Part shown: positions 2,159 through 63,260 of the stretch, piece after piece | How positions within the stretch are numbered: position 1 is the first letter of the stretch | How the letters are laid out: every line of letters begins with the position of its first letter | Virus record (IMG/VR): IMGVR_UViG_3300011258_001374 | Coordinates: 1 to 64,000 of that record | DNA from: a virus | Length of the DNA stretch: 64,000 nt | Direction: 5' to 3' (one strand) | Position numbers and translations under genes: made by a program | Notes under the pieces: model-generated | Told to the model about the DNA's origin: nothing | What the model saw: only the letters and a program-made list of their open reading frames with translations | Databases searched by the model: none

Positions 2159-2567
2159 GTACAACTATCGAAGCACGGTGATGAAGGCCCTGAAGCGGTT
2201 GCGGTCCGATCCCCAGGCGGTTGAGAACTCAGCGAACCCCGGGTGCCCGGACGTCGAATGCCTGCGCGGCTGGATCGAGCTGAAGTACGCGTCTGCTTGG
2301 CCCAAGCAGACGGACACTGTCGTTCGGATCGATCACTATACACAGCAGCAGCGGAATTTCCTTCGGAGACGTTGGAACGCGGGAGGAGGTGCGTGGCTTT
2401 TACTACGGGTTGGATCACGAGGCAAGGTTGAAAACCTGCTCTTTGACGGTTTAACGGCGAATGAGTTTGTCGGTCGCGTTCCGCGCGCTACGCTCGTGGA
2501 CCTCGCAATAATGCATTCATATGGAAAGATCGCCAGCGCCGATCTAGACGAGATGCTCAGACGATGA
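2151..2567 (+). CDS. VRR-NUC domain nuclease (PD-(D/E)XK)
   Basis: GCPDVECLRGWIELK matches the VRR-NUC G.PD...E.K signature; 138 aa; coupled to flanking genes. Confidence 0.7.
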   Translation: MGEYNYRSTVMKALKRLRSDPQAVENSANPGCPDVECLRGWIELKYASAWPKQTDTVVRIDHYTQQQRNFLRRRWNAGGGAWLLLRVGSRGKVENLLFDGLTANEFVGRVPRATLVDLAIMHSYGKIASADLDEMLRR

Positions 2568-4915
2568 CCGATACCCCAGCAGCAATTGAATTCTTGAAGC
2601 AGTGGGAGCCTGAAGGTCCCTGGGTTCTGACTTCAATCGCTATCGACCGAAAGGCGATCACAACGGCCACCTTCGACCTAACAACGCTAGATGAGTGCGT
2701 TGAGTGGATCGATCTATACAACGGTGTTCGCAACATCTACTTCCATGTCAACCCGACCGTCGGCCCGATGGACAAGAAGGCCCAGCGGGAGGACATGGCA
2801 GAGATGAAGTGGTTACACGTCGACGTTGATCCGCGTGACGGCGCCGACCTCCAGGACGAGCGTGACCGCGCACTGGCGCAGCTGATGAATCCCCCAGGCA
2901 ACGTCCCGAAGCCCACGGTGATCGTGTTCTCCGGCGGCGGCTACCAGGGATTCTGGCGACTCCAGGATCCGTTCCAGATCGACGGTGACATCGGACTCGC
3001 GGAAACGGCCAAGCGGTGGAACTTGCAGCTTGAGCTGCTGTTCGGCGCGGACAATTGCCACAACGTTGACCGACTGATGCGGCTCGCTGGGACAACCAAC
3101 ATCCCCGACGCCAAAAAGAAAAAGAAGGGCCGAAGCGAAGAACTGGCCAAGGTAATTCTGTTCGATCACTCTCGCATCTACCCCATCTCTCAGTTCACTC
3201 CGGCCGCACCGACACAAGGCGGCGAGATGTTTGGCAGCTCCACACAAGAGGTGGAGATCAGCGGAAACATTCCTCGCGTCGCCACGATGGAAGAGCTGGA
3301 TGAGTGGGACGTGCCCGACCGCGTCAAAGTCATCATCGTGCAAGGCCGTCATCCAGACGAGGGACCCAAGGACGACGACTCGCGATCGAGCTGGCTGTTC
3401 GACTGCGTTTGTAATCTGGTTCGCTGCAACGTGCCTGACGAGGTTGTCTTCTCCCTGATCACGGATCCAGACTTCGGCATCAGTGAGTCGGTGCTCGACA
3501 AGGGTGCCAACGTTGAGAGCTACGCGAAGCGACAGATTGGGAAGGCAAAAGAATTCGCCATCGATCCGAAGCTCGCCGAGATGAACGATCGCTATGCGGT
3601 CATCGAAAACTTCGGGGGCAAGTGCCGCGTTGTTGAGGAGCAGCTCGATCCAATCCTGAAACGCTCACGCCTCACCTCCCTGAGCTTTGGCGATTTCAAG
3701 AATGCCCACATGCACAAGAGCGTTCCGGTCGGTGAGGACAAGGACGGAAACCCGAAGTTCATGCCCCTGGGCGACTGGTGGACGAAACATCGGGAGCGCC
3801 GACAGTTCAAGCGAGTCGTCTTCGTTCCGAACCAGGAGGTTCCCGACGCATACAACCTCTGGCGCGGATTCGCCTGCGAAGCTCGCCCGGGCAAGTGGGA
3901 CAAGCTCGAAGCTCACATCCGGGACAACATTTGTCGGGGTAACGATGGCTTGTTCAAGTACCTGATGGGCTGGATGGCTCGAATGATTCAGTTCCCAGGT
4001 GAGCCTGGACAGACAGCGATCGTTATGCGTGGCGAGCAGGGAACGGGAAAGTCGTTTCTCGCGAAGCAGCTGGGTGCCCTGCTGGGCCGACACTATATGC
4101 AGGTAGGTAACTCCAGCCAGCTGGTCGGCAACTTCAACGCCCATCTGCGCGACTGCGTCTTCTTGTTCGCGGACGAAGCTTTCTACGCTGGGGACAAGAA
4201 GCACGAAGGTGTGCTCAAGATGATCGTGACTGAAGACACGATGTCGATCGAGGCCAAGGGAGTTGATGTCGAGGCTGCGACTAACTGTCTGCATCTCATG
4301 ATGGCATCGAATCATGAATGGGTAGTGCCTGCGCACAGCCGAAGTGAACGCCGATTTCTAGTTCTCGATGTGAGCGAGAGCCACATGCAGGACACGACCT
4401 ACTTCGGAGCGATCCAAGATCAGATGAATAACGGTGGCCGAGAGGGATTTCTCTATTCCCTCCTGGACTACGATCTGTCAGATTTCGACGTCCGCACAGT
4501 GCCCAGGACGAAGGCGCTGGAAGAGCAGCAGTTCCAGGGCTACGACGTTCAGGAAGAGTGGTGGTACACGAAGCTATGCGACGCGGTCATGCTCAACGAA
4601 GACCCGAGCAACGTGCCGTGGCCTAACGTAGTCCGAACCGATGAACTGTACAATGACTACCTCGAATACACCAAGCGAAACAGCTTTCGAAATCCCAAGA
4701 ATAAGGTTCATTTCGGTCGCTTCATCACCAAGATCGCCAACCCCAAGAAAGGGCAGTCCTCTATCTCCACCGGTCGCCGCAAGGTCTATCAGTTTCCCGA
4801 CGTCGAAGAGTGTCGCCGCCGCTGGATCGAGATCTACAAGCAAGGTGAGTGGGTTGGTGAAGAGCCGGAAGAAACGATCGAGACGCCCGTCCTGGACCAA
4901 GAAGAGATCTTCTGA
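2564..4915 (+). CDS. bifunctional primase-polymerase (AEP) / SF3 helicase, D5/P4 primase-helicase type
   Basis: AEP motifs WLHVDVDP and SGGGYQGFW; C-terminal Walker A GEQGTGKSF and Walker B VFLFADEA; 783 aa. Confidence 0.85.
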   Translation: MTDTPAAIEFLKQWEPEGPWVLTSIAIDRKAITTATFDLTTLDECVEWIDLYNGVRNIYFHVNPTVGPMDKKAQREDMAEMKWLHVDVDPRDGADLQDERDRALAQLMNPPGNVPKPTVIVFSGGGYQGFWRLQDPFQIDGDIGLAETAKRWNLQLELLFGADNCHNVDRLMRLAGTTNIPDAKKKKKGRSEELAKVILFDHSRIYPISQFTPAAPTQGGEMFGSSTQEVEISGNIPRVATMEELDEWDVPDRVKVIIVQGRHPDEGPKDDDSRSSWLFDCVCNLVRCNVPDEVVFSLITDPDFGISESVLDKGANVESYAKRQIGKAKEFAIDPKLAEMNDRYAVIENFGGKCRVVEEQLDPILKRSRLTSLSFGDFKNAHMHKSVPVGEDKDGNPKFMPLGDWWTKHRERRQFKRVVFVPNQEVPDAYNLWRGFACEARPGKWDKLEAHIRDNICRGNDGLFKYLMGWMARMIQFPGEPGQTAIVMRGEQGTGKSFLAKQLGALLGRHYMQVGNSSQLVGNFNAHLRDCVFLFADEAFYAGDKKHEGVLKMIVTEDTMSIEAKGVDVEAATNCLHLMMASNHEWVVPAHSRSERRFLVLDVSESHMQDTTYFGAIQDQMNNGGREGFLYSLLDYDLSDFDVRTVPRTKALEEQQFQGYDVQEEWWYTKLCDAVMLNEDPSNVPWPNVVRTDELYNDYLEYTKRNSFRNPKNKVHFGRFITKIANPKKGQSSISTGRRKVYQFPDVEECRRRWIEIYKQGEWVGEEPEETIETPVLDQEEIF

Positions 4916-6156: not shown

Positions 6157-6232
6157 TGGTAGGCCCCCTCGGAATCGAACCGAGAACCCCAGGATTAAGA
6201 ATCCCGTGCTCTACCGATTGAGCTAAGGGCCT
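6157..6232 (-). tRNA. tRNA-Lys(CTT), canonical 76 nt with encoded CCA
   Basis: Reverse complement AGGCCCTTAGCTCAATCGGTAGAGCACGGGATTCTTAATCCTGGGGTTCTCGGTTCGATTCCGAGGGGGCCTACCA folds as a standard cloverleaf, anticodon CTT. Confidence 0.8.
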
Positions 6233-22803: not shown

Positions 22804-23025
22804 TTATCCGATTTTTTCTTTGACCTGCCGAAGCGCCTGAGCAGGCAGCTGACCGGCATTTGTTGGGCTACCTGCCATAGGCAACTTCGTTGTCTTTCCA
22901 TGGCGTGAGACGATTAGCTTCGGGTGCTTTGCTCCGCTATGTCGTACCTCTACCGAATAGCCTGCCCGCTTGAGCGCCTTTACGATCGCCCGCTGATGCT
23001 TCTGCAGCCGGGGTGCCGCGCTCAT
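22804..23025 (-). CDS. YcfA/HicA-like small protein (mRNA-interferase fold candidate)
   Basis: AIVKALKRAGYSVEVRHSGAKHPKLIVSRHGKTTKLP parallels the HicA pattern (K..GW..VR.KGSH...HP...V..H); start overlaps the methyltransferase stop by 4 nt. Confidence 0.4.
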   Translation of the reverse strand: MSAAPRLQKHQRAIVKALKRAGYSVEVRHSGAKHPKLIVSRHGKTTKLPMAGSPTNAGQLPAQALRQVKEKIG

Positions 23026-24005
23026 GCAGCCATCACGATCTGCTCGACGATGCCCTTGGCCATCTGCACATCAATTGCATTCCCGATCATCTTCCCCGCG
23101 AGGCCCTTCGCCTTCGGGAGGACATACGAATCCGGGAAGCTCATCGATCGCGCCATTTCACGGGCGCTCAGCGTCCGCATCCGGTCGCCGTCGATGATGT
23201 ACCATTGACCGATCGACTTCGTGGTTGACGTTGGGAAAAAACCGTCAAGTGGCCTGCCTGACGACTCTGAGACGTTCGCCCAGAGGCAGCGCTCGCCGGC
23301 CTCGTTCTGGGCCTTTTTAACCCGGATACGCATCCGGGCCGACTTGGAATCGATCGGCTTCCAGTTGTGGTGCGGGGCCGCGTCGTCCTCAAGACATTCG
23401 GCGATCGTTCGGGCCGCATGGCCATACGTCGGAGAGAGGACTGGGGCCGCGTGGCCCATGCGTGCGGTGATGATCATTCTGTCGCGCTCCTGCGCGCCGC
23501 CGTACGCGGTCGCCCGGATCACCTGGGTGTGGGTCTGGTACCCGAAGGCCTTGAGCATGCCGTGATAGGCCTCGAACGCGTCCCATCGCATCATGTCCAC
23601 CACGTTCTCGATCGCGATGAACTCGGGCCTAAGGGTGTCGGCGGCGGATAACACAGCCATAGCCGTGTTGCGGTCTCGCTGCGCCTTTTCTTGGGCCGCC
23701 TGGGCCGATGGCCTAACGTTGCCGCCGGTGCCCCTTCGCGCGGGTTGTCCGCACTGAGAATATCCCTGGCACGCTGGACTCGCCAGAAGTATCCGGGTAG
23801 CCGGGACTTGCGTCCAGTCTGCCTCCTTGAGATCTTGTCGGACGTGGGCCGTGTGGGGGTGGTTGGCCGCGTGGCAGTCAACGGCCTCCTGCCAATGGTT
23901 CGCAGCCCAGAGGACGGGAACGCCTGCCATGTTCGCGCCGGTACTGAATCCGCCGGCACCTGCAAAGAGATCGATTGCGTCAAAGTTGCTCATTGTTTGC
24001 TCCAT
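23022..24005 (-). CDS. DNA (cytosine-5)-methyltransferase
   Basis: Motif I DLFAGAGGFS, motif IV ASPACQGYS (PCQ), motif VI IENVVDMM (ENV), motif VIII AQERDRMII, motif X MIGNAIDV; 327 aa. Confidence 0.9.
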   Translation of the reverse strand: MEQTMSNFDAIDLFAGAGGFSTGANMAGVPVLWAANHWQEAVDCHAANHPHTAHVRQDLKEADWTQVPATRILLASPACQGYSQCGQPARRGTGGNVRPSAQAAQEKAQRDRNTAMAVLSAADTLRPEFIAIENVVDMMRWDAFEAYHGMLKAFGYQTHTQVIRATAYGGAQERDRMIITARMGHAAPVLSPTYGHAARTIAECLEDDAAPHHNWKPIDSKSARMRIRVKKAQNEAGERCLWANVSESSGRPLDGFFPTSTTKSIGQWYIIDGDRMRTLSAREMARSMSFPDSYVLPKAKGLAGKMIGNAIDVQMAKGIVEQIVMAA

Positions 24006-24011
24006 TGTTAT

Positions 24012-24503
24012 TTATACGGTCTTGATTCGTCCACCACATCCTCGGTGGGTGTACTGTTTTGAATTCGGCAATCGTCGTCGACGTTCAATCACGTAATCGC
24101 AACGCTCGCACTCTGCAACTATCTTTAAGGGCCGCTTGGGGGGCCGCGTGATGCCGATAGACTGGGCCGCCTGGGCCGTGGCACATCGGTTGCCGCTATG
24201 TCCGAGTGCTCGGGCGTGTGCTTTCCACACCCAGTTGTGTCCGGAGGGGATTCCGGCCCAGTGGTGGGCGATTTCATGCGCAAGCGTGTCGCGCATTTGA
24301 TCCGGATCGGCAAAAACGCACTTGTGTACTTCAATCCATCGCTCGCCCGTGTTCCTATTCGAGCACGCCATGCCTAACGTAGTGCGTAGCCTAGTGTTTA
24401 CGTAAACGGGAATCGCGAGGATATCCTCGGGAATGTTGGCGAAATTTTCAACGCAGAACCGAATGCAATTGCTTTCGACTGTTCCTATGGGACGCTTGGA
24501 CAT
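24012..24503 (-). CDS. SprT-like zinc metalloprotease with C-terminal zinc ribbon
   Basis: HEIAHH (HExxH) plus downstream His; C-terminal CERC...RGCGGR ribbon; start taken at MSKRPIGTV (164 aa). Confidence 0.55.
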   Translation of the reverse strand: MSKRPIGTVESNCIRFCVENFANIPEDILAIPVYVNTRLRTTLGMACSNRNTGERWIEVHKCVFADPDQMRDTLAHEIAHHWAGIPSGHNWVWKAHARALGHSGNRCATAQAAQSIGITRPPKRPLKIVAECERCDYVIERRRRLPNSKQYTHRGCGGRIKTV

Positions 24504-24565
24504 AGTGGTTTTCTCCGTTTTTTTTTCATACGTATCGGATAGGGCCGCGTGGGCTTTAGTCTTTT
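24504..24565 (-). promoter_or_regulatory. intergenic leader of the SprT-methyltransferase-HicA operon with two direct repeats CCCACGCGGCCCT
   Basis: On the minus strand GGCCCCCACGCGGCCCTAGAAAAGACTAAAGCCCACGCGGCCCTATCC lies immediately upstream of the SprT ATG. Confidence 0.35.
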
Positions 24566-24832
24566 CTAGGGCCGCGTGGGGGCCGTGCGGGCCTCGCGTG
24601 CCGCCTGCAGGTCCCATGCAACTAACTCCGTTTGACCTACTTGCTTTCGATATACACCAACGCTGCACACTGCACCGTAAATGCCTTCTGACCGCAGGTT
24701 CATTACCGCCAACTTGCGCGTCGGTGCGAGCACGCGGTAGACCCGCGAATGATCGGCAACATTGACGCACCCTTCAGGTTGCGGGTCGATTGCCATCGTT
24801 ATGCGCCATTCTTTTACCTTGGGAATGCTCAT
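24566..24832 (-). CDS. hypothetical protein
   Basis: 88 aa from MSIPKVKEW; ATG 1 nt after the upstream gene stop. Confidence 0.25.
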   Translation of the reverse strand: MSIPKVKEWRITMAIDPQPEGCVNVADHSRVYRVLAPTRKLAVMNLRSEGIYGAVCSVGVYRKQVGQTELVAWDLQAAREARTAPTRP

Positions 24833-24833
24833 C

Positions 24834-25604
24834 CTATGCCGCCTTTCGGTTAGCGTCGCGCGCGATCTTTCGACCGAGTCCGCCGGGGCCGTGGTCAATA
24901 ATCACTCGGCCACCCGTCGCGCCGTTGCATTTAATGGGACACTCGGCGCACGTTAGGCGCTTGCCAGCTTCCGCGCTCGCAGGGCATTGACTCTCACCCT
25001 TAACCCGTTCGCGTGCATCCTCGCGGCCATCGGCTACGCGGAAGGTCGCCCAGAGGAGCGCTAGCGCCTCATCGCGTTCGGCGATCGAGTCGACCGAGGC
25101 CATACAGATTCCGCGCAACGCTGCGCCGGTGTCGCGCCATCGGTGGGTGTACCCCGTGTGTTCCGAAGCGGACGCGGCGAGCGCGTGCCAGATTACAGCG
25201 TCAACCGCTCCCGGATCGCCCCAAGCGCCCATGCGAAGCTTTAGGCCTCGGACGTATGCGACTGCGCCGCGTAGGTCGGTCGGGCGATATGCGCCGCGCT
25301 TGACTGCATCGAAAACGATCCGCGGACCGTGGGCTAAATTGACATAGCAGCGCGCCGCGCCTGATTCCTTTGCAAGCGCTGGCCGGTGCGGGCAATCGCC
25401 ACAGACCGAAACATCGGCGCCGCTTTTCGCGGAGTCACCCGGGGCAACGTCGCGCGGGATAATATAGGTCTGAATCATCGCGCCGGTTTTGGCGTTCGCC
25501 TTGCCGTGCGCGGATTTCATCGCGTCTTTTCGTCCCCGCAAAATCACATAGACGGGGGAGCCGTCGATTAGGCTAGTGCTTTCGAAGTAGATTCCATCGG
25601 CCAT
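24834..25604 (-). CDS. Cys-rich (probable metal-binding) hypothetical protein
   Basis: 256 aa; clusters VCGDCPH...CYVN and CPASAEAGKRLTCAECPIKC (7 Cys); RBS AAGGAG. Confidence 0.45.
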   Translation of the reverse strand: MADGIYFESTSLIDGSPVYVILRGRKDAMKSAHGKANAKTGAMIQTYIIPRDVAPGDSAKSGADVSVCGDCPHRPALAKESGAARCYVNLAHGPRIVFDAVKRGAYRPTDLRGAVAYVRGLKLRMGAWGDPGAVDAVIWHALAASASEHTGYTHRWRDTGAALRGICMASVDSIAERDEALALLWATFRVADGREDARERVKGESQCPASAEAGKRLTCAECPIKCNGATGGRVIIDHGPGGLGRKIARDANRKAA

Positions 25605-25610
25605 CGTTTG

Positions 25611-25685
25611 AGTTTGCTCCTTGTGTATATGTATCCTATCGGGCGCGGGGGTGTCGACCTTAAGCGTTATTTTGTTATTTTCTTG
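25611..25685 (-). promoter_or_regulatory. conserved promoter-like element, copy A
   Basis: Minus-strand CGATAGGATACATATACA...AAGGAGCAAAC upstream of ATG 25604; shares about 45 nt (ATCGG.CG.GGGG.G...CTTAAGCG.TTATTTTGTTATTT) with the copy at 27978-28070. Confidence 0.4.
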
Positions 25686-25832
25686 CGCAATCGCTTTCGG
25701 GTGTGATCGCCTGTTTTTAGGTCGGGGCTAGTATGCCTTTACGGTGGAAAAACCCGTTACAGGGGATTTAGGAGCGTGAGTTTTGGAAGCATGGAATGCG
25801 CAGGCCTCGAGCCGGAAGCGTGGGCCAAACGC

Positions 25833-25854
25833 AAAAACCCCCAACCCGGGGAGC
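25833..25854 (-). terminator. possible intrinsic terminator after the 25904-26455 gene
   Basis: Minus strand GCTCCCCGGGTTGGGGGTTTTT: short GC stem followed by a U5 tract. Confidence 0.3.
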
Positions 25855-25903
25855 AAACCAACCGGATCGGGGGCGCGGGCCATCCGCTTAATTTGTGACT
25901 GAC

Positions 25904-26455
25904 CTAGGGTCGGTCGGCTTCGCAGGCGTTCCGCCCCTTGGGCGTAATTGCACCGTTCTTGCGCATGAGACCGAGCGGCACCAGAGAGTCCCGCGTGGGC
26001 TGATAGTCCTCAATCGGGAACCGTCGCGCCCACTCATCCTTCCGCGCTCCGCTCTTATACATCGCCGTTATGCTAAGCGCGTAGGTTTGAGCGACCGTCA
26101 ATTCGGGCACCGCTTCCGCTGCTTTAGTGGCGTGGCGCTCGAATTGATCCGCCTGCAGGTAGACCGTAGGCGGTAGGCGCTTTCCCCGGAACGTGGGCCA
26201 GTTCACCAGATACGCGATCGGGTTGCCGTCGACTTGCACATCGGCCGACTGTCCGCCGAATTGGGGCGCGCCCGTGTGCGGCGGTAGCTCTACCGGTTGC
26301 CCGCATGAATCGAACGCGCCGAAACTGTCTTTTGATCCGCCAGACCAGTAGCTAGAAATCACGATCAGTTTTGCCGGTCGGATGCTATAGCTTTTCTCCT
26401 TTACGATCGAATCGAGTAGGGGGATATCGCCTTTAGAGAGTGTGACCTTGTGCAT
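25904..26455 (-). CDS. hypothetical protein with degenerate PP-loop-like motif
   Basis: LIVISSYWSGGSKDSFGAF resembles the SGGxDS PP-loop of PAPS-reductase/QueC-type ATP pyrophosphatases; 183 aa; weak. Confidence 0.4.
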   Translation of the reverse strand: MHKVTLSKGDIPLLDSIVKEKSYSIRPAKLIVISSYWSGGSKDSFGAFDSCGQPVELPPHTGAPQFGGQSADVQVDGNPIAYLVNWPTFRGKRLPPTVYLQADQFERHATKAAEAVPELTVAQTYALSITAMYKSGARKDEWARRFPIEDYQPTRDSLVPLGLMRKNGAITPKGRNACEADRP

Positions 26456-26467
26456 GATAGTTGCTCC

Positions 26468-26542
26468 TTAGCTGCGCAGCGCGCCGAGTCCGAGACAGAT
26501 TGCACTAACATACGAGATAAGTAGCGCGGCTTCATAAATCAT
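26468..26542 (-). CDS. 24 aa hydrophobic peptide
   Basis: MIYEAALLISYVSAICLGLGALRS preceded by AGGAGCAAAC and the conserved element. Confidence 0.25.
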   Translation of the reverse strand: MIYEAALLISYVSAICLGLGALRS

Positions 26543-26547
26543 TTTTT

Positions 26548-26632
26548 GTTTGCTCCTGGGCTTGATTGCCCGCCCTATATGATTCTTATCGGTCGATGCG
26601 CCGCGGGCTTGAGCGTTATTCGTCCGAATCGA
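26548..26632 (-). promoter_or_regulatory. conserved promoter-like element, copy B
   Basis: Minus strand CGATAAGAATCATATAGGGCGGGCAATCAAGCCCAGGAGCAAAC; shares GGGCAATCAAGCCCAG(A)GGAGCAAAC with copy C. Confidence 0.4.
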
Positions 26633-26921
26633 GAGAAAAAGACTTGCACACGTCTTGCGAGTGGTGCGCGTATACGGTGGCGTCCGCGTACGCTTGCGCG
26701 CGGTTGTAGTCGCCGCGATACCATCCCCACTCAGACCATTCGAAACCATCGCCTAGCGCAATCTCGTGCGCGCACGACTCGCAAACCGTCAAGGGATAGA
26801 AACGGATCGAAAGGCTATCAGGCGCCAGAACGCCGGCGATTCGATTAGTGGGGCTCGCGGTCCGCGTTTCTAGAATCAGCTGCTCTAGTCGTTGCATATC
26901 GTTTGCTCCCTTATCGTCCAC
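26616..26921 (-). CDS. hypothetical protein
   Basis: 101 aa ORF. Confidence 0.3.
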   Translation of the reverse strand: MDDKGANDMQRLEQLILETRTASPTNRIAGVLAPDSLSIRFYPLTVCESCAHEIALGDGFEWSEWGWYRGDYNRAQAYADATVYAHHSQDVCKSFSLDSDE

Positions 26922-27031
26922 ACCCGGGGCACCGAATTTTGTCGGTTACGGGGTGACTGCAGTTCGGGCACTTGGTAGCGGCGGTTTGTTTGTTGATCAT
27001 ATTAAGCTTATCGGCCGCGACCGCGAGACCT

Positions 27032-27742
27032 TTAGTCTAATTTGTCGCCGTAGGTCGGATTTTCGTACAACTCGAGAGTTGCCGCAAACTTGCCGGCTTC
27101 GGTGTCAATGTCGACGATGAATCGGCCGCTGCCCATATCTTGCGCCTCCGTTGCCGCTTCTTTCGAGGCTTCGGCGATGCGTTCGAATAACGTTCGCGCT
27201 TCCCAATGGTTGCCGTTGAATCGTTCATACGCGTTTGCGTATCCTTCGCACAACAAATGCACAAACCATTCTCGGCCGCGAGCGAAACTAGCGAGAGAGT
27301 CGCGCTCCTCTGAATCGTCTCTATGTTCCGCGATGGCTTGCCGAATTCCAGCGCGCACGATATCCCGAAACAGAGGGGCCATACCATGCGGGTCGGTTTC
27401 ATCCGTGGGCGATTTGTCGCCGATCGCGTCCCCGGCATAAGCGAACGCGCGATAGAGTTCGATGAAATCGCTAGCTATGTTTTCGCTCGGGTCCGAGTTG
27501 CCGCGATTTTGTCCCGAAAACCACCCCGATTCCCCGCGAATGAAGTAGACCGCGCCTAGCGCTCGCGTTTCGTTTTCTAGGTCCCCATCTGATTCGTGGG
27601 CTTCATGCTCTAGCGCGTCGTGCGCGACTCCGTCACCGATAAAGGCGTAAGGGTCCTCGACTCCGTCAAGCCATGCCGGGAGCCATCCATCCTCGCCCGT
27701 GTTTTCGTCCGTGCCCCAAGTGAATTCGCGTTGGTATCGCAT
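27032..27742 (-). CDS. highly acidic hypothetical protein (DNA-mimic candidate)
   Basis: 236 aa, very D/E-rich throughout; preceded by the conserved element and RBS. Confidence 0.4.
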   Translation of the reverse strand: MRYQREFTWGTDENTGEDGWLPAWLDGVEDPYAFIGDGVAHDALEHEAHESDGDLENETRALGAVYFIRGESGWFSGQNRGNSDPSENIASDFIELYRAFAYAGDAIGDKSPTDETDPHGMAPLFRDIVRAGIRQAIAEHRDDSEERDSLASFARGREWFVHLLCEGYANAYERFNGNHWEARTLFERIAEASKEAATEAQDMGSGRFIVDIDTEAGKFAATLELYENPTYGDKLD

Positions 27743-27790
27743 TTCGTTTGCTCCTCTGGGCTTGATTGCCCTTCTAACGGCCTAACCCCG
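27743..27790 (-). promoter_or_regulatory. conserved promoter-like element, copy C
   Basis: Minus strand GGGCAATCAAGCCCAGAGGAGCAAACGAAATG immediately upstream of gene 27742. Confidence 0.4.
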
Positions 27791-27842
27791 CTCACCGGTG
27801 AGGGTGGCGGGGCGTCGGCTTTTAGTACCTCGGAAGGGAGGT

Positions 27843-27974
27843 TTAGTTGATTTCCGCAAGCATCGTCGCCGAGGCTCGGTTGAGGCTCGAATCGGTGAGC
27901 GGGGCGAGGTCGATAGAGTTGATTGCGGAGAAGAGAGCGAAGGCGGTGAGGGCGAGGGCGGCAAGCTTGATCAT
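27843..27974 (-). CDS. 43 aa small secreted/membrane peptide
   Basis: MIKLAALALTAFALFSAINS signal-like; GAGGAG RBS; below the ORF-track cutoff. Confidence 0.25.
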   Translation of the reverse strand: MIKLAALALTAFALFSAINSIDLAPLTDSSLNRASATMLAEIN

Positions 27975-27977
27975 TTT

Positions 27978-28070
27978 TGTTTCTCCTCGGCGGGGCTTGT
28001 TTCGTCCGCCTTATATAATACTTATCGGCGGGGGCGTTGGGATCTTAAGCGGTTATTTTGTTATTTGTTG
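27978..28070 (-). promoter_or_regulatory. conserved promoter-like element, copy D
   Basis: Minus strand CGATAAGTATTATATAAGG plus the shared 45 nt block CTTAAGCGGTTATTTTGTTATTT. Confidence 0.4.
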
Positions 28071-28073
28071 TTT

Positions 28074-28331
28074 TTATTTTGGATTGTCGAGCGCGTCCGC
28101 GAGAGTCCGAACCAACGCTATCGAAATCACCCATTCGCCTCGCTGCTCTTCGGTGTACCCGCCATCGGTGAGAGCGCGCGCCGCGAGTTCGGCCACGAGT
28201 TCAAGGTCCCGCGGGGTGGGAATCGGGAGCGCTGGCGGAATCAAGCCCAGATAGGCTAGAAAGCGCGCGAGCGGGTTGGAGTAGTGAACGTCGGCGGTGA
28301 TTCGGATGACGCGCTCGGTTGCGGTCGGCAT
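28074..28331 (-). CDS. hypothetical protein
   Basis: 85 aa; first gene of the leftward block. Confidence 0.3.
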   Translation of the reverse strand: MPTATERVIRITADVHYSNPLARFLAYLGLIPPALPIPTPRDLELVAELAARALTDGGYTEEQRGEWVISIALVRTLADALDNPK

Positions 28332-28923
28332 GGATTCGGGCTCCCTTGGGGGTGTTTTTACATGAAACGTGAATGACGCTGAGTCATAAAACGGCTTTCC
28401 GCTTTCCTAGCTCGCGTTCGATTGAATAGGTGTGCAGGGACCATGCCAGAGCGAGTTGCGCTCGAAATGCACGGTCGATGCCTGAAATGCGTTGGGGATA
28501 CACTACAGAGTGGGGTGGGTTGCGCTTTGGGCGGTGATTCCCTCCGGATGGTGCCGCAAATTGCGGCTCGAGTGACAAATTACGTCTTTTCCCTCTGGGG
28601 TTACCGGGTAAGGCGCGCTAGGGGAGTATTTAGGCGATCCGCTAAGTGTCCGAGATACAAGGGGAATCGGGCAAAAACACGGGTAATCGGGTGAACCGGT
28701 AAGGTTTTAATTCGGTGGTGTGGGGAGGTGGGGCGGCCGGCGGCGGTTGGTGTTTTACTCTATTACTCTCTTTTAAATTTACTAGAGTTAATATAGTTAG
28801 TTGATAACCTCAATGAATTCGACGGGTTGGGTGGTTGGGTAGTGACTCTGGTAAATGGTTAGCGGATCAACATTTGCTTTTGAGTTGCTTGTCTAATCTC
28901 CCGCCTGGGCGTAGTGTCGCGGG
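28332..28923. promoter_or_regulatory. divergent early/late control region
   Basis: About 590 bp non-coding between leftward early genes and rightward terS; perfect palindrome CCGCAAATTGCGG near 28553-28565 and an AT-rich tract at 28750-28840. Confidence 0.45.
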
Positions 28924-29535
28924 ATGGAAGAAGACGAATCAGAGCGAGCGGCGGTTGAGCGCGTTGAAACGGTCCGAGGGTTAGAAGCGATCGAGCGGTC
29001 CCGTGACGCATCCGCGGACTACCACCCGGCCACATTCACGGCGCCGGACCGAGCGGCCTACCTCAATGAAATCGAAACCCACGGGGGACTAGCTCGCGCG
29101 GCCGATGTCGCGGGGTGCTCGACCACTGTTGCCCGGACCTACGCGGCGCGCGTCCCTGAATTCGGGGCCGCGGTCCGTGACGCGCTCACCCGCTACCGCG
29201 ATTCGCTGACGGCGGAGGCTACCCGGCGCGCAGTCGAAGGCGTGGCCGTCGATCGGTTCAATCGGGAGGGCGAGCCCGTTGGGGCGGTGATTCAGTACAG
29301 CGACGGCCTCCTAGGAAAGCTCCTTGATCGGGGAGACCGAATTATCGGCGATCTTCCGCAAGAACGGGGCCAAGGCGTAGGCGCTTTAGACGCAACTCTC
29401 GTTTCGAAGCTTTCTCCCGAGGGACGAAGCGCGCTGCGCATTGTTCTCTCAGAGCTTGCCGGTTTGGTGCCTAACGAAAGTGACCTGAAGAAGGAAGGAA
29501 TCTCTAGTGCAATCGATGTGCAGGCGCAGGCCTGA
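28924..29535 (+). CDS. terminase small subunit (HTH-containing)
   Basis: 203 aa, first gene of the rightward late block, upstream of TerL; HTH-like GGLARAADVAGCSTTVARTY. Confidence 0.5.
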   Translation: MEEDESERAAVERVETVRGLEAIERSRDASADYHPATFTAPDRAAYLNEIETHGGLARAADVAGCSTTVARTYAARVPEFGAAVRDALTRYRDSLTAEATRRAVEGVAVDRFNREGEPVGAVIQYSDGLLGKLLDRGDRIIGDLPQERGQGVGALDATLVSKLSPEGRSALRIVLSELAGLVPNESDLKKEGISSAIDVQAQA

Positions 29536-30132
29536 TGTGCAAGTTCCGGAACCTGCTAGAAGGGGGTGTGCAGAAGGGGGGTCTCTATAGGGGGCCTCTG
29601 GAGAGGGCACCTCTGAGGAAGGGGGTGTGCAGAAGGGGGGTTGTATAGGGGGGTTGTATAGGGGCATGCATGTAGCGCCCCACTAGCACCCCGCATGCAA
29701 CTAACCCCATGGTAGGCACCTTCTAGCATCTTCTAGCAACTAACGTGTGCCAGCATGCACGCACACAGCAGGGGACAGGCAGTACATAGGCAACCATGAG
29801 CAATGCATGTGTAGTATGTATGCAGGGTGTATGCAGGGCACATGCAAAACAAGCAACTGTGAGGCAGCACGTATGCATGTACATGCATACACTAAGCAAC
29901 TAATAAGCAATATAAGCAACACATATGCAGTGTTAGTGTGTTATGTATGCATGTAGTAAGCAAGTATAAGCATATGCTATGCAACACATGTGCAACTAAC
30001 AAGCAGTAAAGCGGAAATTGCTAGAAAGTTGCACCCAGACTGCCTATTTGCAGTACGCCAATCGACACGACCATGCTACAAAATGAATCGCCAAAATTTC
30101 ACAAAAAATTCTCCCAAACCGAGGCGCCGTAT
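29536..30132. repeat. low-GC non-coding repeat region (ATGCA palindromes, GCAACTAAC iterons, G-rich direct repeats)
   Basis: Direct repeats GGGGGTGTGCAGAAGGGGGG x2 and GGTTGTATAGGGG x2; more than 15 ATGCA/TGCAT; 8 or more AAGCAAC; GCAACTAAC x3; GC content far below the flanking ~60%. Confidence 0.7.
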
Positions 30133-30579
30133 ATGACCCCCGCAAGACCGCTCGACCCAGAGACACCGATGACCAACGAAGGACTCGAGACCTTCTGGAA
30201 CAACCAGCTGATCGTGATCAAGCCGCCCGCGCCGGCAGAGTACATGTCCGTCGACTGGCCGATCCTGATGTGGCACGACGTGTCCCCAAAGCTGAAGTTT
30301 CTCGTCGTGACCTCCAGCCAAGAACTCGCGAACCGCTACTCCCACCTAACATGTGGGATGGAAAAGCCCTGCGAGACGAAGCACCACACGCGCGAGGTGG
30401 TAGGAAACGTTTCCGGCGGGGAAATCGTGTTTTCAACTTTTGGCTCCGCCACAATGGGGAGACGGTTTGACTTCGTCCTGGTATCTGATCCGAAGGGGTC
30501 GCAGGGCGACGAGGCCCAGGTGCTACGATGGTTGCATGAAGCGGTGCGCTGCCGCCTACAGAAACCGACGACGCTCTGA
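30133..30579 (+). CDS. hypothetical protein
   Basis: 148 aa from ATG 30133 with RBS GAGGCG; coupled to the next small ORF (ATGA). Confidence 0.35.
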   Translation: MTPARPLDPETPMTNEGLETFWNNQLIVIKPPAPAEYMSVDWPILMWHDVSPKLKFLVVTSSQELANRYSHLTCGMEKPCETKHHTREVVGNVSGGEIVFSTFGSATMGRRFDFVLVSDPKGSQGDEAQVLRWLHEAVRCRLQKPTTL

Positions 30580-30752
30580 TGGCTGCGAGATTCTGCATTG
30601 TCGGAGACGGCGACGGACATTCGTTCTTGATCCCGGCGGAGCGCCGCGGAGACTGGACGCTAGACGAGGGGGATGAAGAGGAAGTGCCCACCTGGGCGAA
30701 ACCGATTGATGGCCCGCATCGGCTAACATTCACGGATCCGAAAGAAGAATAG
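30579..30752 (+). CDS. 57 aa acidic small protein
   Basis: MAARFCIVGDGDGHSFLIP...; its TAG overlaps the TerL GTG start. Confidence 0.3.
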   Translation: MAARFCIVGDGDGHSFLIPAERRGDWTLDEGDEEEVPTWAKPIDGPHRLTFTDPKEE

Positions 30753-32416
30753 TGGAAAACCTCGAACTCCTCATCCCGCTGCTCCGCGATCCCTCGCACA
30801 CCCAACGCGAGCTGGACAAGGCCGAAGCTGCGTCTTCGCTCCTGGAGTTCATGAAGGCGGGGTGGCACGCGCTCGAGCCCCAGGCGCAGTTCGTCTACGG
30901 TTGGGCTGTCGAAGCGATTTGCGAACACCTCCAAGCGGTCACCGACGGTGAGGTCAAGCGCCTGCTGATCAACGTGCCTCCTGGGTGTACCAAGTCGATG
31001 ACGACTAGCGTTTTCTGGCCGATGTTCGAGTGGGGGCCGGCGCGCATGCCGACCTATCGGTACATCACCTGCGCGTACGATCAGGCCCTGCCGATCCGCG
31101 ATCACATCCGTTCACGCGATCTCGCACTCAGCGAGTGGTATCAGGAGAACTGGGGCGATCTGTGGCAGTTCAAGGGTGATCAAAATGCGAAGGTTCGTTA
31201 CGAGAACGATCTCACTGGTTGGCGACAAGCTTCGTCTACTGGCAGTGGACTTACTGGCCATCGTGGCGATCGCATCATTCTTGATGATCCTCATGCTGTG
31301 CGAGATTTGGAGTCCGAGGTTGTCCGCGAAGACGCTCTACGATGGTTTGCCGAGACGCTTCCGACGCGCCTTAACCAACCTGCTATCTCGTCGATCGTTG
31401 TGATCATGCAGCGCATCCACGAACGAGATGTTAGTGGCCTGATCCTCTCGAAGGAGCTGGATTACGAGCACCTCTGCCTTCCGATGGAGTTCGAGAAGAT
31501 CACCCGATCGTTCTCCAGCGTTCCGCGCAAGGATGTCGCGCCCGAACGTCGCTGCCGCTTCATCGCCGAGGGCATGGCGCTGCCGGAATGGCTGACCGAA
31601 GAGGAGCTGGTCGAACGCCGCAACCAGCCGGACGGATCCGAGCTGACGCGCGTGCCCGAATCCTGGGCTCCCGAGTTCAAGCTGGTCTGGTGTCAAGATC
31701 GCCGGACCGAAGAGGGCGAGCTGCTCTGGCCCGAACGATTCACGAAAACTTCCGTCGAAGAGCTGAAGGAGGCGTTCCGATCCTGGGGCGGCTCGTACGC
31801 TGAAGCTGGACAGCTGCAACAGCGGCCGGCGCCCCGCGGTGGTGGTGCATTCCAGCGGAGCGACTTCCGGTATCTGGATATCGCGCCGCAATGTCGTGAG
31901 ATCGTTCGCGGCTGGGACTTCGCCGGCTCGGAGCGAAAAAAGAGCCCGTATACGGTCGGACTGAAGCTCGGCCGGTTCAAGGGCGGTTTCGTCATCCTGG
32001 ATGTCCTGCGGGAGAAGCTCAGCCCGTTCGCGGTGGAGGAGGCGCTCATCAACACGGCGGACGCCGACGGCTACTCGGTGATGGTCGATATCCCGCAAGA
32101 CCCCGGACAGGCAGGGAAATTCCAGAAGTCGGCGTTCATCGACAAGCTCGCGGGGCACGACGCGCACTCGAGCCCAGAGTCGGGATCGAAGGAGCAGCGC
32201 GCTCGCGGAGTCATGGCGCAGTGCGAGGCCGGGAATCTGTATTTGGTGCGCGCTCCCTGGAACGACTCGCTCGTCAATGAGCTATGCTTGTTTCCCAACG
32301 GAGAGTTCAAGGATCAGGCCGATGCGCTGTCCCGCGCCTTCATGCGTTTGACGATGCAGAAGACTGCGGTCGTTGGCTCGGCACCGATGATTATCCCGCT
32401 GAATCGAGGGCATTGA
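30752..32416 (+). CDS. terminase large subunit
   Basis: 554 aa; P-loop-like INVPPGCTKSM, Walker B-like DRIILDDPHAV, acidic nuclease-half residues; position between terS and portal; GTG start. Confidence 0.75.
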   Translation: MENLELLIPLLRDPSHTQRELDKAEAASSLLEFMKAGWHALEPQAQFVYGWAVEAICEHLQAVTDGEVKRLLINVPPGCTKSMTTSVFWPMFEWGPARMPTYRYITCAYDQALPIRDHIRSRDLALSEWYQENWGDLWQFKGDQNAKVRYENDLTGWRQASSTGSGLTGHRGDRIILDDPHAVRDLESEVVREDALRWFAETLPTRLNQPAISSIVVIMQRIHERDVSGLILSKELDYEHLCLPMEFEKITRSFSSVPRKDVAPERRCRFIAEGMALPEWLTEEELVERRNQPDGSELTRVPESWAPEFKLVWCQDRRTEEGELLWPERFTKTSVEELKEAFRSWGGSYAEAGQLQQRPAPRGGGAFQRSDFRYLDIAPQCREIVRGWDFAGSERKKSPYTVGLKLGRFKGGFVILDVLREKLSPFAVEEALINTADADGYSVMVDIPQDPGQAGKFQKSAFIDKLAGHDAHSSPESGSKEQRARGVMAQCEAGNLYLVRAPWNDSLVNELCLFPNGEFKDQADALSRAFMRLTMQKTAVVGSAPMIIPLNRGH

Positions 32417-61326: not shown

Positions 61327-61818
61327 ATGAGCTGGAAACTATCACGACGATCCAAGAAAGAGCTTCTTCACGTTCACCCCGATCTGTGTCAGTTCGTTGA
61401 TTGTCTATTGGCCGAAAGTCCGGTCGACTTTGGTGTTCACGACGGTCTTCGCGAGAAGGCGGAACAGAAAGAGCTGGTTCGCATCGGTGCTAGTCGGACG
61501 ATGAAGTCCCGCCACCTGATCGGCAAGGACGGATACGGACATGCTGTCGATCTCGTTCCGTACATCAACGGCAAGCTTCGTTGGGAGTGGGAACCGATCT
61601 ACGAGCTGGCCGAGGCCGCTCGCCGAGTGTCGCTCGAGATCGAAGTTCCGATCCGCTGGGGCGGAGTGTGGGATCGCCGCCTGGGCAATCTCGAGGCCGG
61701 ATTCATGGAAGAGGAAGTCCAGGACTACGTCGCTCGCCGCAAGAAGCGCTTCCCGAAAAGAAAAGTCTTCATCGACGGTCCGCACTTTGAGCTGCCCCGA
61801 ATCAAAGCGTACCGGTGA
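61327..61818 (+). CDS. endolysin, peptidase M15 (VanY-like)
   Basis: KSRHLIGKDGYGHAVDLVP (SxHxxGxAxD) and FIDGPHFEL (DxxH) zinc-binding motifs; 163 aa. Confidence 0.7.
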   Translation: MSWKLSRRSKKELLHVHPDLCQFVDCLLAESPVDFGVHDGLREKAEQKELVRIGASRTMKSRHLIGKDGYGHAVDLVPYINGKLRWEWEPIYELAEAARRVSLEIEVPIRWGGVWDRRLGNLEAGFMEEEVQDYVARRKKRFPKRKVFIDGPHFELPRIKAYR

Positions 61819-63260
61819 GCTACGAGTATAAGACGTCCCCCTTCGCGCACCAGAAGGAGGACTTCGAACGCACTCGCGAGAAGCGCAGCTGGGCTCACTT
61901 CCACGAACAGGGCACAGGCAAGTCTAAGATCATCGTAGACTCCGCCGCCTATATGTATGAGGCCGGTGAGATCAACGGCATGTTAGTTGTGGCGCCCAAC
62001 GCCGTTCACCAGAACTGGCGGACGGATGAGCTGCCCGTGCATCTGCCGGACCGTATCGCTGAGAGAACGATGGCGGTCAGCTTCCTCAACGCCAAGAAGA
62101 AGACCAAGTGGCACCGCGATGAGCTGAAGGAGTTCCTTGCGTACAAGGACGGCTTCAAGGTTTTGACGATGCCGTACTCCGGTTTCATGACGAAGGAGGG
62201 CAAGGAACTCGCCTGGGCTTTCATGAAGCAAGGCATCATGCTGGTGTGCGACGAGTCGGGAGAAATCAAGACGCCCGGGGCGAAGCGAACGAAGAGCATG
62301 ATCGCCGCGGGAAAATACCCAGCGTACAAACGCATTCTCGACGGGACTCCAACAGCCCAGAGTCCGTTCGACGTCTACGCGCCCATTCGATTCCTCGACA
62401 GCGACTACTGGAAGGAATACAAAGTCCCGACGTTCCAGGCGTTCAAGCATCGGTTCGGCACGTTCATGGGTGCGCCTAACGGCGGTGAATTCTGCACTGG
62501 ATACATCAATCTCGATCAGCTCCACGATTGGATTCAACCGATCTCGTCTCGCGTCCTGAAAGAGGACGTGCTCGATCTTCCGGAGCGGCTGTACGCAAAG
62601 GCCGCGTTCGATATGACGCCCGAGCAAACACGCATCTACAAGATGTTGAAGGACGAGTATCGCGCCGAGATCAACGGCATGGAGTGGGACGCGGACCTTG
62701 CGATTGTTAGGCAGTTGCGCATGCAACAGGTCGCTTGTGGTTATCTCCCCACACCCGAGGAAGAAGGCCAATACGCAGAGCCTGTGCAGCTCATCGGGGA
62801 TACGAACCCACGACTGGAGCTGCAGCTGGAGCTGTTGGATCGCACGCCGCATCAGGCGATCATCTGGTGCCGCTTCACGATGGACATCGATCAGCTCATG
62901 AAGCGCCTGGGCAAGACCGCCGTTCGTCTCGATGGTCAGGTCGACGAGGGCGGCCGAGAGCGATCGAAGCGCATCTTCAAGGCAGGCGACGCGCAATGGA
63001 TGGTCGCGAACGCAGCCGTAGGTGGCACTGGGCTTACGCTCAACCACGCAAAGAGCATGTTCTTCTACAGCAACTCGTTTGTGCCCAGGCACCGCTTGCA
63101 GGCAGAAGACAGGAACCATAGAATTGGGCAGGACGTTTCTGTGCTCGTAACCGACCTGCTCGCACGCAACTCAATCGACTATCATATTGTCGACTCCCTC
63201 AGACGAAAAAGAAAAGTGTCGGCCGAGACGCTTGGAGATCGGGAAGTTGAATGGCTATGA
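61815..63260 (+). CDS. SNF2-family (DEAD/DEAH-box) helicase
   Basis: Motif I EQGTGKSK, motif II LVCDESGE, motif VI QAEDRNHRIGQ; 481 aa. Confidence 0.8.
   Translation: MSYEYKTSPFAHQKEDFERTREKRSWAHFHEQGTGKSKIIVDSAAYMYEAGEINGMLVVAPNAVHQNWRTDELPVHLPDRIAERTMAVSFLNAKKKTKWHRDELKEFLAYKDGFKVLTMPYSGFMTKEGKELAWAFMKQGIMLVCDESGEIKTPGAKRTKSMIAAGKYPAYKRILDGTPTAQSPFDVYAPIRFLDSDYWKEYKVPTFQAFKHRFGTFMGAPNGGEFCTGYINLDQLHDWIQPISSRVLKEDVLDLPERLYAKAAFDMTPEQTRIYKMLKDEYRAEINGMEWDADLAIVRQLRMQQVACGYLPTPEEEGQYAEPVQLIGDTNPRLELQLELLDRTPHQAIIWCRFTMDIDQLMKRLGKTAVRLDGQVDEGGRERSKRIFKAGDAQWMVANAAVGGTGLTLNHAKSMFFYSNSFVPRHRLQAEDRNHRIGQDVSVLVTDLLARNSIDYHIVDSLRRKRKVSAETLGDREVEWL

Follow-up and report, generated by a model that had tools for sequence, protein, structure and literature searches.

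What does a non-coding, repeat-rich piece of DNA do that lies directly behind the gene for the small terminase subunit (terS) of a tailed phage, and which rule orders its repeats? This question is raised by an island of 597 nt at positions 29536-30132 of a tailed-phage genome segment of 64 kb (approximately 58% GC), positions 1 to 64,000 of the IMG/VR record IMGVR_UViG_3300011258_001374, hereafter called the window. The island extends from the terS stop codon to the next plausible start, an ATG at 30133. A preliminary description of this DNA had noticed several families of short repeats and had proposed a packaging-recognition site, a replication origin or a structured non-coding RNA. In the computational analysis of uncultured phages reported here, we found an organising principle that had been missed, i.e. 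a lattice of GCA triplets recurring once per helical turn. The island is tentatively read as a double-stranded DNA (dsDNA) docking lattice that would wrap one or more rings of the TerS protein and would mark the packaging (pac) region of a headful phage, an interpretation that we regard as possible rather than probable.

The GCA lattice and its helical phase

The lattice covers 29536-30060 on the plus strand, approximately 500 bp, and consists of 41 direct, same-strand GCA triplets, which is also the plus-strand GCA count of the complete 597-nt island. The peak value of 31 GCA per 300 nt exceeds the mean of the window, 5.2 (sd 2.9), by approximately 9 standard deviations (sd), and no second peak of this kind exists in the 64 kb. 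The two strands differ, with 41 GCA versus 24 TGC, 18 of the latter being part of TGCA. When aligned on GCA, the unit reads R(-4) Y(-3) R(-2) N G C A and is followed by approximately four weakly constrained bases; typical forms are GTATGCA, ACATGCA, ATAAGCA, GTGTGCA and CTAGCA. The repeats that had been listed as separate families, ATGCA, AAGCAAC and GCAACTAAC, are surface forms of this one unit, RYRNGCA, which occurs once per helical turn. Most of the earlier counts could be reproduced, namely more than 15 ATGCA/TGCAT motifs (12 and 5, together 17) and three copies of GCAACTAAC at 29697, 29736 and 29992. However, AAGCAAC, which was said to occur at least eight times, was found three times; GCAAC occurs eight times and AAGCA seven times. 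Many units are palindromes at the DNA level (TGCA and the CTAG boxes described below), and alternating purine-pyrimidine runs of at least 8 nt are approximately 9-fold denser in the lattice (13 runs) than in the whole 64 kb (179 runs).

The commonest distance from one GCA to another is 11 nt, with echoes at 22 and 33 nt, and 15 GCA pairs stand 11 nt apart compared to 1.2 ± 1.1 (maximum 6) in dinucleotide shuffles. Over the long range, the best period is 10.55 bp with a power of 10.4, which exceeds the control maximum of 8.6 among 1250 windows and contrasts with a value of 0.3 at 11.0 bp. Three to five 11-nt units are followed by one 9- or 10-nt unit, and this order recurs, so that 42 or 53 nt correspond to four or five turns. 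The period is thus 10.55 bp rather than 11 bp because the shorter units regularly interrupt the runs of 11-nt units. When the order of the spacings was shuffled, the observed power was matched in 12 of 2000 cases for the window. Among related phages, named here by the labels of their contigs (L-numbers), it was matched in none of 2000 for L006, L003 and L078, in 6 of 2000 for L069 and in 102 of 2000 for L075. Since the period equals the helical repeat of B-DNA and is maintained over 35-60 turns, the GCA units lie on one face of the duplex. This helical phase is the main argument that the element would work as protein-bound dsDNA.

Several further boxes are embedded in the lattice. The perfect palindrome GTTCCGGAAC, correctly placed by the preliminary description directly after the terS stop (29543-29552), belongs to a semi-conserved CCGGAACCTGCTAGMA box, whose counterparts are gccggaacctgctagca in L006 and ggttccggcacctgctagaa in L083. 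It is followed by the CTAG boxes (29553-29738), with CTGCTAGAA at 29553 and CTTCTAGCA at 29720 and 29730; a further one, TTGCTAGAA, is found at 30018. They share 8-bp palindromic cores, TGCTAGCA or TTCTAGAA, all four matches to CTKCTAGMA in the 64-kb window fall into the island (chance expectation 1), and the array of every relative carries 3-9 copies. The G boxes (29559-29664, plus strand) comprise GAAGGGGGTGTGCAGAAGGGGGGT at 29559 and 29618 and a tandem AGGGGGGTTGTAT at 29634-29664, and they represent the best-conserved internal element of the lattice across lineages. The same stretch contains the G-rich direct repeats reported before, GGGGGTGTGCAGAAGGGGGG (29562 and 29621) and GGTTGTATAGGGG (29639 and 29652), both of which were found twice. 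The low GC content attributed to the entire region holds for its right part (0.40 at 29801-30000 and 0.45 at 30001-30132) but not for its left part (0.61 at 29536-29700); the whole island has 0.49 and the window a mean of 0.58.

Two side observations can be added. The stretch 29621-29664 on the plus strand is the only G-quadruplex-type motif (four runs of at least 4 G, loops of at most 12 nt) on both strands of the 64 kb, and it lies on the non-template strand for rightward transcription. Moreover, restriction-type palindromes are unusually common in the lattice (TGCA 18 times, CTAG five times, ATGCAT five times). Since the phage also encodes a C5 cytosine DNA methyltransferase (23022-23993, minus strand; PF00145, E 1.3e-39), methylation of the lattice is conceivable.

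Linkage to terS and the conserved 3' block

The terS gene (28924-29535, plus strand; 203 aa) matches PHROG 4044, 'terminase small subunit', with an E-value of 2.9e-15, and it is always located directly upstream of the lattice. Relatives were collected by TerL-based scans of viral, genome and metagenome contigs and by TerS-based look-ups of proteins and contigs, which resulted in a comparison set of 11 distinct readable lineages whose TerS is 57-92% identical to that of the window. A scan of viral contigs with an 18-nt G box returned the known relatives and one chance match in coding sequence (L038), whereas a scan of viral contigs with a terS peptide pattern found nothing and was replaced by a protein search. 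In all 11 lineages the lattice is situated directly 3' of terS, comprises 23-79 GCA over approximately 0.35-0.8 kb and has a period of 10.2-10.6, in L082 with a power of 21.8 at 10.5. Counted over the 600 nt after terS, each of the 11 lineages has 23-61 GCA, where approximately 10 would be expected, and the distance between GCA triplets is 10 or 11 nt in 8-28 cases.

Apart from their final 120-150 nt, the arrays can for the most part not be aligned, and BLAST yields approximately 70% identity, mainly at the 3' end. They nevertheless follow a common grammar consisting of a G box GAAGGGGGTGTGCAGRAAGGGGGG, CTGCTAGCA and CTTCTAGAA boxes, and GCAACTAAC or GAGCAACTCATGTGCA units. Near-identical strains differ by a single 12-nt indel, i.e. 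of the size of one unit, and the array of L006 shows local tandem duplication with a higher-order unit of 53 nt. The comparison with relatives, which had been suggested as a check, shows that the primary sequence has turned over, yet the unit, its polarity, its phase and the sub-boxes have been kept, which we count as a sign of selection.

The gene next to the lattice varies. It is an open reading frame (ORF) of 148-170 aa in the window, L002, L042/L075 and L006, an ORF of 79 aa in L069, and terL itself in L003, L044, L078 and L081. In L073, eight unrelated genes (4.3 kb) are inserted between lattice and terL, and lattice and 3' block are still found at terS. L069 is the most distant case, with 57% identity in terS and 79% in terL; it has the lattice and none of the window's early proteins (tblastn), and we found no early gene that is conserved in all lattice-bearing lineages. 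The reverse situation is represented by phages whose TerL is 51-58% identical and which have another terS, as well as by Shewanella phage S0112: none of them has a lattice. Hence, this terS family and the complete element are inherited together, and nothing else in the vicinity shares this linkage.

The earlier placement of the island between terS and terL is confirmed in that both genes flank it, the latter (30752-32416, plus strand) being assigned by PHROG 38 (E 2.4e-64) and PF17289 (Terminase_6C). It needs correction in that terL is not the next gene, as an ORF of 148 aa (30133-30579, plus strand) intervenes. The claim that the island itself holds no credible ORF is upheld by the relatives, since gene callers find ORFs in some of them only and these are mutually unrelated.

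The right end of the island (30010-30132, plus strand) is a single-copy block and the sole part that aligns across lineages. It opens with the invariant AATTGCTAG, the start of a CTAG-centred near-palindrome; in the relatives AATTGCTAG is the centre of a near-perfect 20-bp palindrome, GCAAnTTG-CTAG-CAAnTTGC. From here on the orientation of the units is flipped, with TTGC/TGC at 30018, 30029, 30041 and 30049 (spacing 11, 11 and 8 nt). The inverted units are followed by CCAATCG, an A-rich tract AAAATGAATCGCCAAAATTTCACAAAAAATT at approximately 30079-30110, and GAGGCGCC ahead of the next start codon. The block is unique in the window, and further copies, which a recurring promoter would produce, were not found elsewhere in it. 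A scan for sigma-70 promoters and terminators gave nothing above shuffles, and RNAalifold detected no conserved RNA pairing in the alignable block (consensus -2.6 kcal/mol, 5 pairs). The window and L042 read through the block in different frames, and in L003 no ORF crosses it, so that it is not conserved as coding sequence. Judged by these comparisons, the block is conserved non-coding DNA or a leader element. The terminase may cut here, or the block may harbour a late promoter or a region of unwinding.

The spot just 3' of the block, outside the conserved element, appears as a hotspot of accessory genes (30133-30579 in the window, 11333-14903 in L073). In the window it holds the variable 148-aa ORF, which has no Pfam or PHROG match and is present in L002, L042/L075, L006 and L047; the ORF of the window and those of the relatives share the motif ...G.(R/Q)FD.(V/I)I.SDPKG. 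The ORF is absent and the spot empty in L003, L044, L078 and L081, L069 carries its 79-aa ORF here, and the eight genes of L073 include an Imm5-like/DUF7666 gene.

A putative packaging site and its rivals

Which protein would read such a lattice? According to Greive et al. (2016; PMC4737164), small terminases form rings in which adjacent helix-turn-helix (HTH) motifs stand approximately one B-DNA turn apart, and approximately 100 bp of bendable DNA would wrap a ring. By analogy, the lattice would be exactly the DNA that such a ring prefers, with identical contacts of the same sense in each turn on deformable DNA. In the mechanism that we propose, TerS would form a ring of HTH domains spaced by approximately one helical turn and would bind successive GCA units head-to-tail, and the flexible purine-pyrimidine DNA would wrap ring after ring or, alternatively, a spiral of TerS. 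Specificity would result from the avidity of many weak contacts and direction from the uniform polarity of the units. The complex would then pass the DNA to TerL, which would cut in or near the conserved 3' block, and packaging would proceed rightwards into terL and the structural genes. TerS as the binder, its wrapping as ring or spiral, the cut in the 3' block and the rightward packaging are what we infer from sequence.

The points counted for a pac region are the position, the linkage to terS, the geometry, the signs of selection, the single GCA peak and the packaging type. As is typical of pac sites, the DNA is repeated and presumably bendable, given the direct repeats with a period of 10.2-10.6 bp and the purine-pyrimidine runs, and it is located beside terS, since the lattice begins at the terS stop in the window and the 11 lineages. 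The notion of an iteron-like protein-binding element tied to terS, put forward in the preliminary description, is supported by the helical period, the palindromic units and the co-occurrence with the TerS family. Directly 3' of terL we found genes for a Mu-like portal (PF06074) and a MuF-like head protein, which together make up a module of the headful type. One relative is represented by contigs of approximately 70.15 kb whose break points vary with the sample from which they were assembled; this would be in line with a circular or permuted assembly without proving it. As regards a cos site, the long contigs of relatives have their ends elsewhere than at the lattice. As a separate observation, contigs of the same phage from different runs share their starts: L078 and L080 both begin 3002 nt upstream of terS, and L041 and L042 begin approximately 1290 nt upstream of it, 6 nt apart. 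These shared starts could mean that the assemblies break at repeats or that the DNA physically ends there.

Several points weigh against docking of TerS. The pac assignment rests on position and geometry and is held only tentatively. The identity of TerS itself is based on the PHROG match and on fold matches that are not significant. In the AlphaFold model (pLDDT 74), helices at residues 40-76 look HTH-like and are followed by a long helix (78-105) and a beta hairpin (107-124); the top five matches of this model in a Foldseek search of the PDB are Sf6 gp1 TerS (probability 0.82, E 0.27, non-significant) followed by SF6 G1P, a sequence search of the PDB gave no match, and the 27 TerS homologues (55-92% identity) are all uncharacterised. 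Furthermore, 500-800 bp with 25-79 units would be several times the wrapping capacity of one TerS ring. The pac sites that have been characterised take up less DNA, and most of them are found within terS or 5' of it, which makes the position 3' of terS unusual. In two lineages, L002 and L073, the long-range phase is not significant in the spacing-order shuffle test, and the binder could be encoded beyond the 6-20 kb of flanking sequence that were read.

The main observation that packaging leaves unexplained, and hence another point against it, is a second class of GCA repeats. In the window, dyads and triads of the form GCA-N8-GCA, often GCAAC-N6-GCAAC, are dispersed over 23000-28900 on the minus strand, i.e. 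in the sense orientation of the early genes, and they also occur over start codons; the same is found in L006, L073 and L075. Approximately 33 minus-strand dyads were counted at 23-31 kb versus approximately none per kb elsewhere. Between 20.0 and 28.9 kb, 26 GCA pairs are 11 nt apart versus approximately 3 at other lags, while 6.9-20 kb and 30.2-64 kb show no excess of 11-nt pairs. This zone includes a phased minus-strand run (28433-28481) and, immediately 5' of terS, a dyad (28875-28888). Several dyads or triads lie across start codons, so that GCA falls at -7/+4 or -20/-9/+2 relative to the ATG; examples in the window are the starts 23993, 24832, 26455 and 26897. The density is much higher in L006, L073 and L075 (116 dyads in 10 kb in the latter), and L069 has almost none. 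In L075, the GCA positions relative to the start codon are -18/-7/+4 or -20/-9/+2 in 16 of 25 early genes, compared to 7.8 ± 2.3 under random placement (maximum 15 in 2000 trials), and 78 of the 116 dyads are intragenic and away from starts. The ribosome-binding regions of the early genes of the window share GGAGCAAAC. The early genes can be described as carrying a start-associated cassette. Its form is GGAGCAAAC...ATG in the window, relatives have GCAACT[CA]ATGAGCAAC, and its GCA triplets follow each other at 11 nt and keep a constant position relative to the start codon; it is confined to the non-structural early region (23000-28900 on the minus strand of the window, 1-9990 in L075, 3100-12721 in L036). 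In addition, the minus-strand intergenic region 24541-24626 contains a direct repeat TAGGGCCGCGTGGG (24541 and 24569), beside which, at 24618, the sole GCAACTAAC copy outside the lattice is found.

A rival reading is that the lattice belongs to a regulatory nucleoprotein array, in which a phage regulator would bind GCA-N8-GCA head-to-tail and shut early genes off at the start-site dyads and triads. The 40-unit lattice would then separate the late operon from the terS-side promoters as a barrier or insulator, serve as the upstream element of a late promoter in the conserved 3' block, or form a sink that times the switch. The confinement of the dyads to the non-structural early region, their orientation with transcription and the start register in L075, which recurs at starts of the window, fit such a regulator. 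So do the position of the lattice at the early/late boundary and the end of the 3' block at the ribosome-binding site of the next gene, and precedents exist in the stoperators of Cluster A mycobacteriophages (PMC9283540) and the start-associated sequences of Cluster K mycobacteriophages (PMC3203893). However, Pfam detects no DNA-binding domain in nine early proteins and the 148-aa ORF, no integrase or repressor was seen among the approximately 35 window ORFs scanned (a subset of its ORFs), and there is no early gene common to all lattice lineages. Moreover, L069 combines a lattice with almost no dyads, the majority of the L075 dyads lie inside genes, and the block is single-copy and contains no promoter-like match on the plus strand. 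We consider a regulatory array rather unlikely. A combination of both ideas is more doubtful still: one protein, possibly TerS, might read the code of one GCA per turn at two scales, the early-gene dyads and the packaging lattice. Dimers or trimers on start-site dyads would switch early genes off, and a multi-ring or spiral assembly on the 40-80-unit lattice would start packaging. If true, a single code and protein would couple the early-to-late switch to encapsidation. Phages would then possess a genome-wide lattice code of a new type, and the long-debated wrapping model of TerS would have a natural substrate that is encoded in the sequence.

The other two functions named in the preliminary description fared less well, a replication origin being weakened and a structured RNA finding no support. 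An initiator, e.g. a primase-helicase, might bind the phased repeats of an iteron-type origin, the A-rich tract of the 3' block would melt, and the G-rich left part might form an R-loop or G-quadruplex that primes synthesis. Phased direct repeats are indeed followed by an A-rich stretch, the only G-quadruplex-type motif of the window lies here, and the phage encodes DNA polymerase A, primase and helicase. The cumulative GC skew, proposed earlier as a check, turns from falling to rising at approximately 25-28 kb, 2-4 kb to the left of the island, but this switch says little because the direction of transcription switches there too. No initiator gene is adjacent, with the primase 25 kb and the helicase 32 kb away, and DnaA-box-like elements are not enriched (103 matches in the window versus 93 ± 9 expected, none with at most one mismatch at 27.7-30.2 kb). 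The 25-79 repeats are far above the number in known origins, and the element tracks terS across lineages rather than replication or early genes, insertions on the terL side not displacing it. An origin appears quite improbable. At the RNA level, approximately 40 GCA sites in a terS-terL transcript might mimic translation starts and sequester a regulator or ribosomes, similar to a CsrB-type sponge or a RegA-type target set. The units of lattice and early genes are oriented in the sense of the local transcripts, the unit of relatives frequently takes the form ATGNGCAAC, which is the same as at genuine gene starts (GCAACTNATGAGCAAC), the terminator scan predicts none from terS to the lattice, and the plus strand has a folding z-score of -3.1. 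However, the minus strand folds nearly as well (z -2.0), the two scores being explained by the palindromic nature of the units, many of which, like the 18 TGCA and the CTAG boxes, are palindromes of DNA. The triplets at -4 to -2 in the window are mostly GTA, ACA and ATA and not ATG, so that start codons are not mimicked here, there is neither an Rfam match with E<0.5 nor conserved pairing in the alignable part, and a 10.5-nt period kept by 9/10-nt corrections has a rationale for DNA but none for RNA. We regard an RNA function as very improbable. Almost no credence is given to non-functional, fast-evolving satellite DNA produced by replication slippage. Rapid sequence turnover, the unit-sized 12-nt indel between near-identical strains and local tandem duplications such as the 53-nt unit of L006 would be in line with it, but 11 lineages, the most distant with a TerS identity of 57%, retain position, polarity, unit, phase, sub-boxes and 3' block, and slippage alone would give a period of 11.0 and not 10.5, while the power at 11.0 is approximately zero.

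Some further candidates were discarded. An Rfam scan at permissive E-values resulted only in chance matches to eukaryotic miRNA and snoRNA families. Sigma-54 (-24/-12), Bacteroidetes-type and leaderless promoters were considered for GCAACT/TTGC, and the invariant positions, judged by eye, misfit. Primase trinucleotide sites, polar motifs of the Chi or KOPS kind and Rho rut sites do not explain the exact spacing of once per turn. Neither par nor int nor rep genes were found beside the lattice, and the absence of the first two led us to discard an attP or partition site as well.

Genome setting and comparison with known systems

The replication genes of the window encode DNA polymerase A (18-1925), primase (2564-4915) and helicase (61815-63260). 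A tRNA-Lys(CTT) gene (6157-6232, minus strand) is located where the plus-strand replication genes and a minus-strand block converge. The latter extends over approximately 6.9-28.3 kb and consists of small genes, most of them without assigned role; RNA ligase, thymidylate synthase and the C5 cytosine methylase are encoded here. In the Pfam scan of the nine early proteins and the 148-aa ORF, a SprT-like protein and the C5 methylase were the only matches. The early genes are followed by a plus-strand morphogenesis block with terS, terL, the Mu-like portal, the MuF-like protein and the tape measure. As listed, the ORFs of terL (to 32416) and portal (from 32284) share 133 nt, and the real portal start is probably further downstream than 32284. 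A search of GenBank phage DNA found no close relative of the window; the nearest isolate by TerL is Shewanella phage S0112 with 52% identity.

A divergent intergenic region of 590 nt (28332-28923) separates the first minus-strand early gene (28074-28331) from terS. It shows a strong G skew (+0.2 to +0.4) and an AT-rich core (28755-28810) with two copies of TTACTCT, the same place in L042 having three copies of TACTCT, and it holds the above-mentioned phased run of minus-strand GCA units. By these features it is a candidate for an early-promoter or origin region.

How does the lattice compare to known repeat systems? Iteron origins such as lambda ori, P1 oriR and those of iteron plasmids also place phased direct repeats beside an A/T-rich region. 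They typically comprise 4-10 iterons, each measuring 17-22 bp, which mostly lie within the initiator gene or next to it and are often accompanied by DnaA boxes; the lattice shows none of these latter traits. Pho boxes and other sites of the OmpR/PhoB family consist of a 7-bp repeat and a 4-bp spacer, i.e. an 11-bp unit, to which winged helices bind head-to-tail. The architecture of our unit, with approximately seven specified and four free base pairs, resembles these sites and the lambda Xis micro-filament, in which direct units take up one protein per turn. Sites of the Pho-box and Xis type hold 2-9 units at promoters or attachment sites. In contrast to these systems, no response regulator or Xis-like gene was identified here among the ORFs scanned.

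The closest parallel to the proposed packaging function is the pac region of SPP1/SF6, organised as pacL-pacC-pacR (PMC4737164), which also lies next to terS and consists of sets of direct repeats in bendable DNA. In the model for this site a TerS ring touches the DNA once per turn through many weak HTH contacts, as we propose for the lattice, and a cleavage region is flanked by binding regions, which is only predicted in our case (PMC4737164). However, the SPP1 pac spans promoters and the terS start, and contains three small sets of repeats that show little sequence specificity in vitro, whereas the lattice is 3' of terS, measures 0.35-0.8 kb and has 23-79 units with an invariant GCA and an explicit 10.5-bp phase. 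A similar geometry is known from parC/ParR of plasmid R1 (PMC2241845), in which 11-bp direct repeats each bind one protein dimer, cooperatively and along one face of the DNA, to give a curved or wrapped complex. parC differs in that two sets of five iterons flank the par promoter, followed by parM and parR. The lattice has 4-8 times more units, only 3 nt per unit are invariant, and the ParM, ParR and ParA families were not found in the ORFs neighbouring it.

The dispersed dyads have their own counterparts. Like the stoperators of Cluster A phages (PMC9283540), which are bound by one phage protein, the dyads of the window, L006, L073 and L075 are asymmetric, scattered over the genome, oriented with transcription and often situated at gene boundaries. 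The stoperators are single 13-bp sites for the monomeric immunity repressor of temperate phages and form no mega-array, whereas the window has 11-nt dyads and triads and one 40-unit lattice. The start-associated sequences of Cluster K phages (PMC3203893), which have no known function, resemble the dyads in their restriction to the non-structural half, their single orientation and, for many of the dyads, their fixed register near the ATG. They differ in that their 13-bp motif, GGGATAGGAGCCC, takes in the Shine-Dalgarno sequence and is restricted to starts; the dyads are GCA-N8-GCA, most copies are intragenic, and a tandem lattice exists in addition. If the binder of the lattice were a regulator, lattice and dispersed dyads would provide a second, unrelated form of such punctuation, written in helical register and outside the actinobacteriophages.

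How small terminases choose their genome is still argued, with wrapping and threading models under discussion, and most pac sites display little sequence logic. If TerS docks on the lattice as proposed, the latter would give a clean substrate for a direct test of the wrapping model. Irrespective of the binder, a bare trinucleotide that keeps helical phase for half a kilobase is a simple signature, for which the surroundings of other terS families can be searched. Phased repeat arrays that organise proteins are already known, as pac boxes, parC, iterons and Pho boxes exemplify. What is unusual here is the number of 25-79 units, the reduction of the invariant part to a trinucleotide that keeps helical register over half a kilobase, and the strict coupling to one TerS family despite the turnover of the sequence.

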